In this document: positions 14,374 to 27,036 of the stretch, piece after piece
Layout of the letters: every line of letters begins with the position of its first letter
How positions within the stretch are numbered: the first letter of the stretch is position 1
Sequence record: PP925826.1
Length of the DNA stretch: 64,000 nucleotides
Direction: 5' to 3' (one strand)
DNA from: Escherichia phage Antha
Made by a program: the position numbers and the translations under genes
The notes under the pieces: model-generated
What the model saw: only the letters and a program-made list of their open reading frames with translations
What the model was told of the DNA's origin: nothing
The model's database searches: none

Positions 14374-14732
14374 ATCAGACTCCTTTATAAGTTTACGTTT
14401 CATGCCACACATCATACAGCGTCTTTTCATCTATTACAAGAACAGCAACATAGAAACATCATTAATGGAGGAATTAGTATAGGTATTCCCTATCAATTAT
14501 TCTATATATACCTATTATTTTTAACACACCCCTTTGTACATAATATAGACAAATAAATATCTATGCCACAAAAATTTTCCGGTATACCCGATTTATTTCG
14601 ACACACCCCCTTTTCATAAGCGTAAAGTCAATAATATCAATAACTTGCCGCAAAATACTGCTCGCTTGCGAGAGGTGCTTAACGCGATTTTCAGCGCCCC
14701 CCGATTTCTGCCGACCGTCCTCCTCAAATATC

Positions 14733-14769
14733 AATGAGAATAATTATCATTTGCATTATCATTCAATGA
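14733..14769. repeat. Fur-box-like palindrome pair
   Basis: aatgagaataattatcatttgcattatcattcaatga; AATGAnnnTCATT architecture. Confidence 0.4.
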
Positions 14770-14930
14770 CTTATAAGACTTTTGATTATTTTCTGAGCAA
14801 GAAAGGTACTACTCACAACAAAACAGATAAATTCTAAGTAAATCAATGGCTTGGCAAGTCTAAACATCTATATACACCTTGCCAAATGAAATGATCTGGC
14901 GTGAAATAGTGCCACCCGTGGAAGATAGCT

Positions 14931-14949
14931 GATAATGATTATCATTTGC
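14931..14949. repeat. Fur-box-like palindrome
   Basis: gataatgattatcatttgc vs Fur consensus GATAATGATAATCATTATC. Confidence 0.45.
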
Positions 14950-15304
14950 ATATTTTCTATACTATAAAACCGACTAAAAATCAAGATAATTCTGATTTAT
15001 TGCGCTTTTAAGAAAGTAGGCTCAACAAATAGGATATTTAGGGGTAACAAATAGGCTATAACTATGGGGGCAATAGTATGAAAAATCATCTATTCAGATA
15101 TAAATAATTTTGCGCAATAGTGGCAATATTTTTCTTGACAAGAAAGATTTCTTTGTGTTCACATAGCGCCCCCCTGGAAGGTGGCGCATTATGATCATCA
15201 ATGTCATTATTCACCATGTTTATTATTGCATAGCTTATTACTTAGCTTATATTATAGCCAATGTTCTAAACATTAGCTAATAATAACGCACCGCAACAAT
15301 GTAA

Positions 15305-15480
15305 GGGATACAATATACAATTGTATATTGTTGCGCTTGCAGTTGTTGCAAGCTACATAAACACAAATAATAACTATCGGTGATGGTTATTATGTGGGGG
15401 GGTGTAGTTGCGTTATTATTAGCCGCCTATGTGTCCGGCATAGGCTGCTAATGATACGCTTGCGAATTATATTTCTTGTT
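15305..15480. repeat. cluster of four perfect or near-perfect palindromes/hairpins
   Basis: 22-bp palindrome acaatatacaattgtatattgt; gcttgca..tgcaagc; ataataac..gttattat; attagccgcctatg..cataggctgctaat. Confidence 0.55.
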
Positions 15481-15780
15481 ATAGTTATTGTATGAAATGA
15501 TTACTTAGGTAATAGATAGGAAGGTAAAGGTTAGATCATAAATAGATAGGATATGAATTATTTAGTAATGTTACTTTGTGCAATAATTCAATAGATTATA
15601 GTTATAGTTTTAAAGGTTAGATAGATTATATTTAGCTTAGTAATGATTTATATTAGTTATTGTTGTTTAATATAAGGTTATCAATGAGATAGTAACAGTA
15701 AGTTATAAATAAAAGTAAGATAATTAGTTTTAATTTAGTTAGATAACTTATTATTTTATAGGTTAGATGGTCATAAGTTA
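15481..15780. repeat. C-depleted low-complexity tract with short direct repeats
   Basis: almost no C on + strand; recurring aggttagat, atagatagg, tagtaatg. Confidence 0.5.
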
Positions 15781-15855
15781 AGAATGATTATCATTATTGC
15801 ATTATGCAGTTTATTGCATAAATAATCAGCTATAAATAAGAATGATTATCATTTA
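15781..15855. repeat. two Fur-box-like palindromes
   Basis: agaatgattatcattattgc and aagaatgattatcattt separated by tgcattatgca inverted repeat. Confidence 0.45.
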
Positions 15856-16054
15856 AGAGGAAAGACAAGAAAAAGGCTGTTTTTGCCAGATAGTTGCATG
15901 AAGAAATTAAAAATAAGCGGTATAAAACACGTTGTAAGCGCCTTATGATCTTCATGGTATGGTTGTTCATCTGCTCCTTGATTAGCTCGATACCGCGATC
16001 TATTCACTTTTTTCGGTGAACGTTTTTGATAGGTAAAAGCTATCATCTTTATTT

Positions 16055-16086
16055 AGGTAAAAAGAAAGGGCGCTTTGTGCGCCCTG
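16055..16086 (-). terminator. intrinsic terminator (minus strand)
   Basis: hairpin agggcgctttgtgcgccct with T-run on minus strand. Confidence 0.55.
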
Positions 16087-16100
16087 GTGTGAAGTGTCAT

Positions 16101-16484
16101 TTACTTATAAGCTGGATCGTTTGTTATATCAATCCAATGAGCTAAATTAATTTTATTTTTTGCTTTCATTTTCTCGATCAAACGTTCTGCTAATGTCTCG
16201 GAACGGATATAAACATAATCGCTAAAATCTTGCCCCGTTTCTTCGTCGATCATTTCTCTATATTCAACCTTGCCGATAAACGCATGATTCAGCGCATAAG
16301 TTTTACCCGTGTACCAGTTGTGTAAATGGATCTCGCATTTATAATCGTCGCTATAACCTTCGGTTGTTCTAACTTCAACCAGATCGCCTTTAAACACGGA
16401 TAAGCACCACATAGGATCACGATCTACAGCGCCGTTAAAATCTTTACCGTTTACAGTAGCCGCCAGGTTGATGATATTGCTCAT
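16101..16484 (-). CDS. hypothetical protein
   Basis: start at ATG preceded by GAGG; promoter TTGACA-N17-TATTAT lies in the longer ORF-track extension. Confidence 0.5.
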   Translation of the reverse strand: MSNIINLAATVNGKDFNGAVDRDPMWCLSVFKGDLVEVRTTEGYSDDYKCEIHLHNWYTGKTYALNHAFIGKVEYREMIDEETGQDFSDYVYIRSETLAERLIEKMKAKNKINLAHWIDITNDPAYK

Positions 16485-16902
16485 GGTGATTCCTCGTTTA
16501 CCGTTTAAAATGATTTGCCCTACGTGATAAATAATAGTGTAAGCGTGATCCGGTGTCAATAGGTAGAATTGTAAAGATTTGATAGTTTATACCTTTGATG
16601 TTTTGTTGTTTAATAGGTATTAGCTATTAATATATAGCGGGATCTTCCGGTGATTATCTTCCCCTGTCCCCAGGTGCCGCCCGTTCCATAATAATAATCA
16701 AAAGCAGGGTAAAAGGCAAGATAAAAAGCAAATTATTTCCTATGTGCTTTAAACGCTCTAAATAGCTTTATAACAGCTTTTTCATCCTGGCAAGGTGATT
16801 AGTCATTACTACCTTGTTTAAGCGGTTATAATCGGTTTTAGGCTGTTTTACGCCACCTCTTACGTTTATTCTTTACGTGTTACTTCCATCGTGAAAAAAG
16901 AA

Positions 16903-16930
16903 TACAAAAAAGGGCGCTTAGTGCGCCCCT
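16903..16930 (-). terminator. intrinsic terminator
   Basis: hairpin gggcgcttagtgcgccc flanked by A/T runs. Confidence 0.55.
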
Positions 16931-25147: not shown

Positions 25148-25169
25148 TGCATTACCCTTTCTTTGATTT

Positions 25170-25230
25170 GGCGGGAAACCATTTCCCCGCCTTATGTGGT
25201 ATATATTAACAAATTATTTTTCAGTGTCAA
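25170..25230 (-). promoter_or_regulatory. early promoter + leader hairpin cassette
   Basis: TTGACA..TATATA-ccacataa + ggcggggaaatggtttcccgcc. Confidence 0.55.
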
Positions 25231-25233
25231 GCC

Positions 25234-25506
25234 TTAAAGCAAAAACGCTACATCTTGCGCTTTTAGTGTAGTGTCGATCATTTTCGGGCTTTTATAATCC
25301 ACAAATCGCGCGGTTTTTTCAATAGCGAAACCGAGATAATCTTGTTTATTGAAATTACATTCTTTTTTAAACGTTTCCCGTGCCACTGTGATCGCTGCGT
25401 CCAGGGATAAACGCCCATCAATATTGATGTTAGCGAAAGATCCGCCACCGCGCATAGGTTTACCAGTGATGCCAGCTACGATCATTGATGCGCTATATGA
25501 TGCCAT
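25234..25506 (-). CDS. hypothetical protein
   Basis: 90-aa ORF. Confidence 0.45.
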   Translation of the reverse strand: MASYSASMIVAGITGKPMRGGGSFANINIDGRLSLDAAITVARETFKKECNFNKQDYLGFAIEKTARFVDYKSPKMIDTTLKAQDVAFLL

Positions 25507-25528
25507 GATTATTTCTCTCTTCTGTTAT

Positions 25529-25586
25529 GAGCGGCACTATTGCCGCCCTATGTGATAAACTTTACCAGATTAAAAAACGTTGTCAA
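25529..25586 (-). promoter_or_regulatory. early promoter + leader hairpin cassette
   Basis: TTGACA-N17-TAAAGT-ttatcacatag + gggcggcaatagtgccgctc. Confidence 0.6.
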
Positions 25587-26226
25587 GAATATTTTTTAGA
25601 AAATAACAACCGCCACTACAATCCAAAATGGAACGGCTAGAATGATAGCGTTAATCGTTCCAACCGTCAAGCTGTTTTCTTTCTTGATCATCGTTATCAA
25701 CCTTTTATAAGTAATGTTATTGTGACGGTGGATTGTGGAGATCCTCACCTTTGCCCGTCCTGCATTGCACCCGCCTATTGTTTATTGTCGTTGTGCCTTG
25801 CCCCCCTCGACAAGATGAATACTACGCTACCAGGTGAGGAACGTCAACCATTTTTTAATCTTTTTTTCATTTCTTTTTTGCTTGCTATCTATAAAGGAAA
25901 CGGCTATTATCTTTCTACCGCGCCAACCAGGGCGCACATCAAAGAAAGGGCGATACCATGACAAATACTCCTTTACATCTCATGCACTCATTGGGCTGGC
26001 AAGGTGGCACGGTGCACCAGGTAGCAAGCGCAACGGGCTTAAAGGTTGAAACCGTTCTCAACCTGGGCGATCATAAGGTGGAAGAAATAGATCATTTTGA
26101 TACGTTCGCAAATGGTTATCTATGGGCTTGCAGTGGCGGCGGGGAAAGCAAGATCCCACCAGGGGCGCGGGGCGACATGTATTTTTGGTTAGGTGTCCTA
26201 TCCTGGCAAGAAAACAAAAAATAATC

Positions 26227-26255
26227 TTGACAAGCCCAGGGATCGGGCTTATACT
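26227..26255 (+). promoter_or_regulatory. sigma70-like promoter pointing rightward into non-coding region
   Basis: TTGACA-N17-TATACT followed by about 100 nt GC-rich sequence. Confidence 0.4.
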
Positions 26256-26486
26256 GTTTTACATACAGAAGAGGAAACGCCACCCCCACGGCGTAAAGGC
26301 GGGGCTAACATACCAGGGGGCACTGGTTGGAAGGTTGATCGCCGGTAGCTCGTCTAAAATAAATTTGTAAAGAAATGTAAAGATAAAAATAATCGCTTGC
26401 TTTTGTTGTTGGTTATGCTATTCTTATTGTATGGCGAGGGGACACGGGAGCGCGAGACAAACACCGCCCCTGCGCGTTATTCTCTA

Positions 26487-26597
26487 AATGAGAAAATTCT
26501 CATTTGCTAATGATTCTCATTCTCTTACTGAGAATGATTATCACTTACATAGTTAAATGATAATGATTCTCATTTACAAACGAAAATGATTCTCATT
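26487..26597. repeat. cluster of five Fur-box-like palindromes
   Basis: aatgagaaaattctcatt, aatgattctcatt (x3), gagaatgattatcac. Confidence 0.5.
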
Positions 26598-26599
26598 AA

Positions 26600-26830
26600 C
26601 ACACCTATAAAAACACGAAATTGAACTTTTCATTTTTGATTTTTCTACGGAAAAAGGCAAAAAAACTTTAAATAAACTGGGGAATTTTTAAAAAATTGAA
26701 GTTTTCATTTTCAAAATCTGGATAGAAATACATACAAAAACTTTAAATAATTTTGACCAAACTTGAACTTTTCATTTTCAAAATTTGTACCCAAAAATCT
26801 GTAAAAACTTTAAATAATTTTGTACTTTTT
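26600..26830. repeat. imperfect direct repeats
   Basis: aaaactttaaataa x3 and gaa(c/g)ttttcattttcaaaat x2-3. Confidence 0.5.
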
Positions 26831-27036
26831 ATAAAAATGATTTTACTGTTCTGTTATAAGTAGTAGTTAAGAGATAGTATGTCTTTTAAAGATCAGATAC
26901 CATAGTCAAACAAACAAATTAAATACTTTATTAACAGAGTACAGAATAATATTTACTCTGGATATATTATTCAGAGGGTGGATTTCCGTACATGAAACCC
27001 ACACCCCTTTTTATAAAAATAAAAATTTTCAAAATA

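Follow-up and report, generated by a model that had tools for sequence, protein, structure and literature searches.

Studies on T4-type phages have established that their hyperplastic regions carry promoter-early stem-loop (PeSL) cassettes, in each of which an AT-rich region and a strong sigma-70 promoter are combined with a polyG/polyC stem-loop and a Shine-Dalgarno sequence, and that these stem-loops terminate transcription (Arbiol et al., 2010, PMC2839356; Comeau et al., 2014, PMC4122927). Here, we consider a block of small genes at 16101-25748 of Escherichia phage Antha (record PP925826.1; the window is the whole 64,000-nucleotide stretch of DNA that was analysed), together with the non-coding regions that flank it on the left (14431-16100) and on the right (26471-27036). 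From its database matches, the window is that of a phi92-like myovirus (Justusliebigvirus): the region 14431-27036 is 96% identical over its full length to Escherichia phage vB_Eco_PATM, its further matches are other Stephanstirmvirinae of the genus Justusliebigvirus (the phi92 group), and the more distant ones are Phapecoctavirus. We put at roughly two in three the probability that the block is the hyperplastic early region of this genome, read by the host polymerase, lying just inside the right genome end and assembled from PeSL-like cassettes, and that the palindromes in its flanks are Fur boxes.

Transcription-activated origins, such as T4 oriF/oriG and the T7 primary origin, are untranslated, AT-rich and repeat-bearing regions into which strong promoters fire. 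The Fur boxes of Escherichia coli are described by 7-1-7 and 6-1-6 models, and a 6-bp spacing is the arrangement reported for overlapping Fur dimers and clusters of sites (Chen et al., 2007, PMC2189734). In phage T5, palindromes and DRC repeats have been described in 'Repeat Region 3', with a function said to be impossible to guess, and the passages that describe them do not mention Fur (Davison, bioRxiv 10.1101/866236). If the block is what we propose, PeSL-type cassettes, described only in T4-like phages, would structure and reshuffle the early region of ORFans in phi92-like phages as well, and these phages are widely used in therapy collections; an early region of this kind is the expected site of host-takeover and counter-defence genes. 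The coordinates given below place the early block, the end of the genome and a control hub whose conservation reaches from Justusliebigvirus to Certrevirus; the hub's RNA-like element of about 110 nt and the Fur-box arrays of the flanks are, as far as could be found, previously undescribed.

Promoter-leader cassettes of the putative early-gene block

The block lies on the minus strand and comprises about 26 small open reading frames (ORFs) and 19 near-consensus sigma-70 promoters. The promoters match TTGACA-N16/17-TATAAT at 10-12 of 12 positions and are packed into 9.65 kb at roughly one per gene, every one of them on the gene strand; their density is 2.0/kb in the block against 0.68/kb, both strands taken together, in the rest of the window. 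When aligned on the -35 hexamer, they share an A-rich stretch upstream, a transcribed leader, and then another A-rich stretch with a Shine-Dalgarno sequence. The leader consensus, (T)TAYCACRTAGGGCGG(GAAAtGGTTTC)CCGCC, is predicted to form a hairpin with a free energy of roughly -13 to -16 kcal/mol, and such a hairpin (CAYRTAGGGCGG...CCGCC; GGGCGGGAAATGGTTTCCCGCC-type) follows at least 12 of the 19 promoters. A pattern that combines promoter and leader has eight matches on the minus strand of the window, none on its plus strand and none in the other 99 kb of one relative's genome. The entire cassette is a repeat of 70-80 bp that is present in about 20 copies, all in a single orientation. Judged by these promoters, the block would be transcribed early and by the host RNA polymerase.

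The likeness to the T4-type PeSL extends from the A-rich upstream stretch, the near-perfect TTGACA-N16/17-TAnnnT promoter, the stem-loop of a G run and a C run and the Shine-Dalgarno sequence to the repetition of the cassette before small ORFan genes concentrated in a variable region, and to the junctions of insertions, deletions and replacements among close relatives, which fall in the cassette (PMC2839356, PMC4122927). The present cassettes differ in belonging to a phi92-like myovirus rather than a T4-like phage, and in a stem-loop that is fixed in the leader (the alignment places it at about +8 to +35), after a CAYRTAG start motif, and has no U-tract. Since the sense strand lacks a U-tract, the leader hairpins are, unlike the T4-type stem-loops, unlikely to be terminators; some of them score as such on the antisense strand only. 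The hairpin is probably an RNA-stability element or the target of a regulator. Overall, the block resembles a PeSL-type hyperplastic early region, now outside the T4-like phages.

The gene content of the block varies by whole cassettes. Among 295 matching phage records, only 16 cover at least 80% of the region in one place. Five relatives, each about 96% identical, were compared pairwise with the window (muut, Nernie, phi92, pEC-M2929-1AR.1 and one IMG/VR viral contig), and they differ from it by gains, losses and replacements of whole cassettes. The junctions lie at 16519-16533, 18147-18199, 18456/18988, 21987-22230, 22626/22628, 22913-22927, 23321/23590, 24786/25840, 25211/25601 and 25599/25621, where neighbouring alignment pieces overlap by 7-27 bp. 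Read base by base, the junction at 16519-16533 falls in the leader motif CCTACGTGATA, that at 22913-22927 in the -10/spacer part of a promoter, and that at 23321/23590 in two ATGGCTA start codons, with a 7-bp overlap TAGCCAT; the coordinates of the remaining junctions adjoin promoter or leader positions, as at 18173-18199 near the promoter at 18217. The stretch 23322-23589 (minus strand) is itself a variable cassette, which carries the ORF 23417-23596 with its own promoter and leader; it is present in the window, kept in Nernie and missing from the other four relatives (muut, phi92, pEC-M2929-1AR.1 and the IMG/VR contig).

In the mechanism that we propose, each small ORFan or ORFan pair would form a cassette of its own, made of an A-rich stretch, a sigma-70 promoter, a G/C-hairpin leader and a Shine-Dalgarno sequence, and the roughly 20 copies in one orientation would supply short homologies for phage recombination. 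Genes could then be inserted, deleted or swapped as whole units that leave their neighbours undisturbed, on the same principle as in T4-type PeSL. Pfam searches with 27 ORFs returned a gp30.8-like family (16101-16559) and DUF7249 (22628-22867) and placed the remaining ORFs in no family, and each of the ten ORFs searched against PHROGs falls in a family of unknown function; by these searches, almost all genes of the block are ORFans. Short tandem repeats (16700-16731 and 16746-16780) are found in an ORF-free gap at 16560-16945, as is a terminator-like hairpin that reads in both directions (16906-16934), and muut and Nernie have an additional small gene cassette beside this gap, at the junction 16519-16533.

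The block also stands out in composition. The initial annotation had proposed, by eye, that the genes at 16.1-25.6 kb use more G/C-rich codons than the rest of the window and form a distinct module, and quantitative analysis confirms both. Bulk GC is 0.394 at 16101-25750, 0.373 at 1-14430 and 0.370 at 27037-64000, and stretches of equal size that avoid the block reach 0.378 at most, which makes the block the GC-richest stretch of its size; within the region, GC peaks at 0.44 in 23.7-26.47 kb. The signal is much clearer at synonymous sites than in bulk GC. GC at third codon positions (GC3) is 0.393 for the 24 genes of the block and 0.291 for the 91 genes elsewhere (Mann-Whitney p = 6e-8), and the difference is also significant against the 33 neighbouring small genes at 2-14.4 kb (0.308; p = 3e-5). 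Per 1000 codons, GCG is used 16.7 times in the block versus 3.3 times in the other genes, a five-fold enrichment, CCG (8.6 versus 2.6) and CGC (12.0 versus 4.7) are enriched about three-fold, and CCT and AGA are depleted. With relative synonymous codon usage (RSCU) computed from 35 E. coli K-12 genes as the host reference, codon usage in the block is shifted toward that of E. coli K-12 (mean ln RSCU -0.023 versus -0.109 for the other genes, p = 7e-5). Such G/C-ending, host-like codons could result from translation that precedes the accumulation of phage tRNAs, or from gene flux from GC-richer relatives. The extent first given to the block needs one correction: its minus-strand genes run to about 25.75 kb, and the stretch from there to 26.47 kb is a separate plus-strand unit with an 88-aa ORF, two promoters and a conserved non-coding element.

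Palindromes of the flanks as candidate Fur boxes

That the two flanks are non-coding and carry palindromes was part of the first description of this region, and both points hold. All strong copies of the palindrome are confined to the flanks: AATGAnnnTCATT occurs in six exact copies in the window, all of them there. With at most one mismatch, it has 19 matches in the window against 6.75 expected, a number reached by none of 100 shuffles, and the 19-bp Fur consensus (GATAATGATAATCATTATC) is matched with at most three mismatches six times against 0.05 expected. To probe cross-recognition, a 21-column matrix built from eight window sites only, which themselves score 23.5-29.9 bits, was run over E. 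coli K-12 595,000-644,000 (49,001 bp). Its top four matches fall in the intergenic regions fepB-entC (26.6 and 20.7 bits), fepD-entS (16.1 bits) and fepA-fes (13.6 bits), which make up 1.8% of the scanned sequence, and the next match scores 10.9 bits. These three regions are classical Fur operators. The fepD-entS region is among the Fur sites confirmed by gel shift (PMC2189734). By sequence, the flank palindromes are high-scoring Fur boxes.

In the left flank, a pair of boxes with a 6-bp offset (TGAGAATAATTATCATTTGCA, 14729-14755, 26.5 bits) is kept in phAPEC8, and the strongest box of all (TGATAATGATTATCA, 14930-14950, 29.9 bits), which has two mismatches to the 19-bp consensus and a perfect 7-1-7 motif at 14930-14944, is kept in phi92 (30.3 bits) and phAPEC8 (23.8 bits). 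Further sites at 15779-15799 (25.6 bits) and 15831/15837-15857 (18.2 and 23.5 bits) are also present in phi92. In the right flank, an array of five palindromes (26487-26601) holds strong boxes at 26505, 26529, 26558 and 26581 (24.7-28.3 bits), weaker partners 6 bp upstream at 26523, 26552 and 26575 (13.3-17.6 bits), and a 9-2-9 variant of the palindrome at 26487-26506. Most sites form pairs offset by 6 bp (14729/14735, 15831/15837, 26523/26529, 26552/26558 and 26575/26581). The phage sites thus share with E. coli Fur boxes the sequence specificity, a perfect 7-1-7 site, the 6-bp pairs and the clustering of strong sites. They differ in lying in untranslated regions of a virulent phage, beside an early block and inside a terminal repeat; moreover, most of them are off promoters, and those of the array are discrete, 19-29 bp apart.

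The sites are also conserved. Outside the two flanks, the genome of a relative (about 147 kb) has no site above 16.1 bits. The two terminal-repeat sites survive in phAPEC8 amid sequence that is only about 70% identical, and Fur-type sites hold their position in Phapecoctavirus, Vequintavirus, Mydovirus, Certrevirus and a Serratia phage as the surrounding sequence diverges; the RNA-like element described below has a site at +176 to +231 from its core in 18 of 20 loci, which represent several genera. In BIS47 and KNP2, a 1.8-kb non-coding region about 10 kb away contains a second cluster; an early block between two Fur-box clusters is therefore a family trait. The literature that we searched contained no report of Fur boxes in phi92/rV5-like or T5-like phages, and the array of the right flank, searched against E. 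coli genomes, gave only matches of at most 32 bp with E of at least 2. The number of array units differs among close relatives, phi92 (11507-11626 of the extracted locus) having one more strong site than the window, which suggests that the array expands and contracts. Elsewhere in the window, at 38449-38477 on the plus strand and inside a 937-aa ORF, a weak Fur-like site (GATAAAGATTATCATTTTG) abuts a perfect DnaA box (TTATCCACA), probably by chance.

The left flank (GC 0.323) holds no credible genes, and the curated phi92 record has no coding sequence in the stretches equivalent to either flank. Within it, 14680-15022 matches the annotated direct terminal repeat of Salmonella phage UAB_1 at 97% identity over 343/343 bp and holds two of the Fur-box sites; the phi92 record FR775895.2 annotates the same 343-bp repeat, and BME3 has a direct terminal repeat of 342 bp (PMC12210895). 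Because of this match, and because many relatives' records begin or finish at this location, the 1.6-kb non-coding region appears to contain the physical ends of the genome, at 14680-15022, and the block would abut the right end. Along the minus strand, the last block gene is directly followed by a hairpin with a T run that resembles an intrinsic terminator (16067-16085; its phAPEC8 equivalent is annotated as a terminator), then by about 1.05 kb of untranslated DNA and the terminal repeat. Across the joined ends, a further untranslated stretch of about 250 bp (14431-14679, minus strand) leads from the repeat to the first left-end gene (14008-14430) and carries two copies of AAAGGGGTGTG (14525 and 14602). 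This motif occurs three times in the window (14525-14535, 14602-14612 and 27000-27010), always on the minus strand and in the non-coding flanks, a count that is not significant by itself, being reached by 10 of 100 shuffles.

A multi-hairpin element of 148 nt (15276-15423) in the same flank consists of a 15-bp closing stem and three internal hairpins. It folds with z-scores of -5.5 (minus strand) and -7.4 (plus strand), its closing stem shows compensatory changes in phAPEC8 (ACGCA/TGCGT to AGCCA/TGGCT), and a cassette-type leader motif (ACACATAGGCGG) lies beside it on the minus strand, at 15433. In BIS47, a long inverted repeat of different sequence is the analogue (about 2612-2632 and 2786-2806 of the extracted locus). 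A doubtful 65-aa hydrophobic ORF with an AAGGAG ribosome-binding site (15849-16046, minus strand) overlaps the Fur boxes at 15779-15857 with its 3' end; it is annotated in some relatives but not in phi92.

On comparison of the genomes, the right flank (GC 0.249) is part of a divergent control hub conserved across genera, in which the 88-aa ORF, a promoter P1, the RNA-like element, TTTGTAAAGAAAYGTAAAGA, a second promoter P2, a leader, the palindrome array, direct repeats and the stop of a NADAR-domain gene (27037) follow one another. The same order is found in Certrevirus (phiTE and CR9), Mydovirus (BIS47) and a Serratia phage, with GATC-containing iteron-like repeats in place of the AT-rich ones. 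The ORF (25958-26224), a homologue of phi92 gp224, is the only plus-strand gene here, and a small plus-strand ORF occupies the same place in the inspected relatives from other genera. Its predicted model is a five-helix fold (pLDDT, the predicted local distance difference test score, of 94), which has no significant match in the PDB and resembles no known DNA-binding fold. P1 (TTGACA-17-TATACT, 26227-26255, plus strand) points away from the block and is conserved in Certrevirus, Mydovirus and a Serratia phage. P2 (TTGCTT-16-TATTCT, 26397-26424, plus strand) has a start region that is of cassette type in other genera (TATATT ATA CACATAGCGGG) and is followed by a conserved leader (GACAAACACC); the array lies, as read from the sequence, at about +55 to +170 from the P2 start. 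Beyond the array, three direct repeats of 67-79 bp (26618-26838) lie in DNA of 25% GC, within which no convincing pairs of sigma-70 hexamers were found; GATCGAGAC/ACC iteron-like repeats take their place in Certrevirus and Mydovirus.

The RNA-like element (26262-26372, plus strand; core ACGCCACCCCACGGCGWAAAGGCGGGGCTAAC...GGAAGGTNNATCGCCGG) lies just downstream of P1 and is 72-88% identical in nucleotide sequence, with long invariant runs, in phages of other genera (Klebsiella, Cronobacter, Pectobacterium, Serratia and Raoultella phages). A three-helix fold fits all the sequences, with one covarying pair only (GC in nine, AU in seven) and other pairs that hardly vary; a structured RNA is plausible here. 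Rfam searches of 13.5-28 kb gave no match with E < 1 on this element or on the 148-nt element, the few matches with E < 1 lying elsewhere in that stretch and far under the gathering scores, and 26230-26480 searched alone with lax filters had a best E of 4.6. A scan of viral contigs with a looser GGAAGGTNNATCGCCGG pattern added one real locus, KNP2, most extra matches being attributable to chance from the length of the pattern and the size of the collection. An identity with the pseudo-ToxI anti-abortive-infection RNA of phiTE was rejected, as pseudo-ToxI lies at 106.7 kb and the hub at 39.7 kb in that genome. The hub as a whole looks like a transcription-activated origin, in that strong promoters fire into an AT-rich, repeat-bearing untranslated region as they do in T4 oriF/oriG and the T7 primary origin. 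As an origin the hub is putative, and the GC skew of the window follows the direction of transcription only.

A BLAST search with the hub also retrieved T5-like phages. In these, an untranslated region of about 1.7 kb beside the pre-early genes carries five strong sites of the Fur-like type; this array is conserved across 566 Demerecviridae records, most of which show it twice, and the annotations at it include 'DTR' (direct terminal repeat) and, in one record, 'similar to DNA injection stop signal'. From the order in which the elements are named in Davison's account, the Fur-like palindromes would be its DRC and palE-J elements. T5 Repeat Region 3 and the hub are alike in being large, conserved untranslated regions at the inner edge of a host-promoter early region near a genome end and in bearing an array of the same AATGAnnnTCATT-type palindromes. 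They differ in that the terminal repeat measures about 10 kb in T5, which also possesses DnaA boxes and DRD repeats, and the present phage has a 343-bp repeat, a block of unique sequence, the conserved RNA-like element and different direct repeats. The DnaA box TTWTNCACA is absent from both flanks, and its ten copies in the window compare with 12.2 expected. In T5_ev219 (7693-12778, reverse complement), the Fur-like array is accompanied, at 2140-2380 and 2600-2700 of that stretch, by some nine TGTCGGATTTGCACA repeats and by paired DnaA-type boxes (TTATCCACA and TTATCAACA), and by position these repeats and boxes appear to be elements described in that account.

In the proposed mechanism, iron-loaded host Fur dimers (Fur-Fe2+) would occupy both palindrome clusters. 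At the hub, Fur bound about 55-170 bp downstream of P2 could block the P1/P2 transcripts, which continue into the AT-rich repeats, or could modulate or time them. In addition, eight or nine strong sites per genome, multiplied over many replicating copies, could titrate Fur and thereby de-repress host iron uptake, as in the plasmid titration assay (FURTA); the phage encodes a class Ia ribonucleotide reductase, which de-repressed iron uptake could help. Since the terminal-repeat sites overlap no clear promoter, classical repression would explain the hub array only, and a titration or architectural role fits those sites better. It is a tentative suggestion, and one that we hold with less than even confidence, that the phi92/rV5-like myoviruses and the T5-like siphoviruses, large virulent phages of enterobacteria that are unrelated to each other, each recruit host Fur through arrays of high-affinity boxes in conserved untranslated DNA at the edges of early regions and terminal repeats. 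The purposes might be to sense iron, to insulate the early region and the transcripts that reach the putative origin or to set their timing, or to soak up Fur for the sake of the iron-dependent ribonucleotide reductase. If Fur binds, there would be a link between host iron regulation and the early programme in two major lytic coliphage groups, and if the suggestion is true, Fur would be a candidate factor for the unexplained palindromes and repeat region beside the T5 injection stop signal.

Several points weigh against a Fur-bound early region of PeSL type. The terminal-repeat boxes have no clear promoter overlap, no convincing hexamer pairs being seen around the four sites in or near the repeat, and repression of P1/P2 under plentiful iron offers no obvious benefit to a lytic phage. 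Occupancy by host Fur is predicted from the sites, and the early timing of the block from its promoters, at the level of sequence alone. The leader hairpins are followed by A-rich sequence instead of a sense-strand U-tract, the junctions were analysed in five relatives with base-level reading of three, CTG, a major E. coli codon, is not enriched in the block, and the codon shift may have either of the two causes named above. Moreover, a phage-encoded protein with Fur-like specificity is a possible alternative reader of the sites.

This last point leads to the alternative that survives best, in which the palindromes are operators or iterons of a phage-encoded DNA-binding protein (a replication initiator or an early-to-middle switch), the hub is a transcription-activated origin and the likeness to Fur boxes is coincidence or mimicry. 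The two tandem promoters firing into a 25% GC region with three direct repeats, the GATC-containing iteron-like repeats found there in related genera, and the conserved small ORF directly upstream would all suit it, and CR9 annotates a 'DNA binding protein' beside its hub. However, the 88-aa ORF has no detectable homologue in T5-like phages and its model is unlike DNA-binding folds; a shared host protein would therefore be the simplest reader of the sites, and we regard a phage-encoded one as rather unlikely.

Resident region or imported module

The flanks themselves are stable. Within the genus, both of them are syntenic, as is the arrangement of two palindrome clusters separated by 10-11.5 kb, and all of this is seen again in Klebsiella Mydovirus; the three junctions read base by base lie inside the block. 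The idea that the flanking repeats are recombination breakpoints, which the initial annotation proposed to test, is thus not supported. The broader suggestion, of a mosaic module and hotspot, stands as far as the variable gene content and the exchange of whole cassettes are concerned, but exchange takes place at the internal regulatory cassettes and not at the flanks. A horizontally acquired accessory or anti-defence island, exchanged as a unit at its palindrome-bearing flanks, could draw on the distinct composition, on the variable, ORFan-dominated gene content and on the NADAR-domain gene next door. That idea is largely refuted, and we consider it very unlikely: the relatives diverge at cassette junctions inside the block, the left flank would be the terminus of the genome, neither an integrase nor direct repeats of attachment type occur, and no ORF of the block matches a known anti-defence family in Pfam or, for the ten searched, a PHROGs family of other than unknown function. 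The block would rather be a resident early region beside the terminal repeat.

Still less probable is that the block is the counterpart of T5 first-step transfer, whereby the right end would enter first, followed by expression of about 11.5 kb of genes with host promoters, and the hub array would serve as an injection stop signal. The layouts are indeed parallel, a genome end leading to about 10-11.5 kb of small genes with sigma-70 promoters and then to a large untranslated repeat region with palindromes, and the injection-stop region of the T5 family carries the same arrays and, in one record, the corresponding annotation. However, the terminal repeat measures 343 bp and not about 10 kb, neither flank has DnaA boxes, and the hub is conserved in phiTE, which is reportedly circularly permuted (PMC3475682), so that no fixed end would enter first. 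Least credible of all is that the palindromes act as RNA hairpins in the P1/P2 transcript and not as DNA sites, for the array does lie downstream of P2 on the transcribed strand, but the specific sequence (AATGAttaTCATT) is kept, beyond complementarity, across genera and in T5-like phages, the hairpins would be weak, with 5 bp and a loop of 3 nt, no convincing promoter lies upstream of the copies in the terminal repeat, and no compensatory, sequence-divergent arms are seen in distant relatives.

Neighbouring genes and layout of the window

Genes lie on the minus strand from about 2 to about 31 kb and on the plus strand beyond about 31 kb, and GC skew across the window tracks this direction of transcription only; a scan of the window returned zero tRNA genes. 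The first gene past the right flank (27037-27588, minus strand) encodes a NADAR-domain protein (PF08719, E = 3e-36) and is the end of an upstream minus-strand operon. Enzymes of the NADAR type are able to reverse DNA ADP-ribosylation, and this gene, which is outside the block, is a possible counter-defence gene. Adjoining it, 27589-28578 (minus strand) encodes a protein with CapR and T5orf172 domains. Finally, records named 'Campylobacter phage' (A145, A110a, A150, B15 and C3) are about 95% identical to these coliphages and look like mislabelled or contaminant entries.

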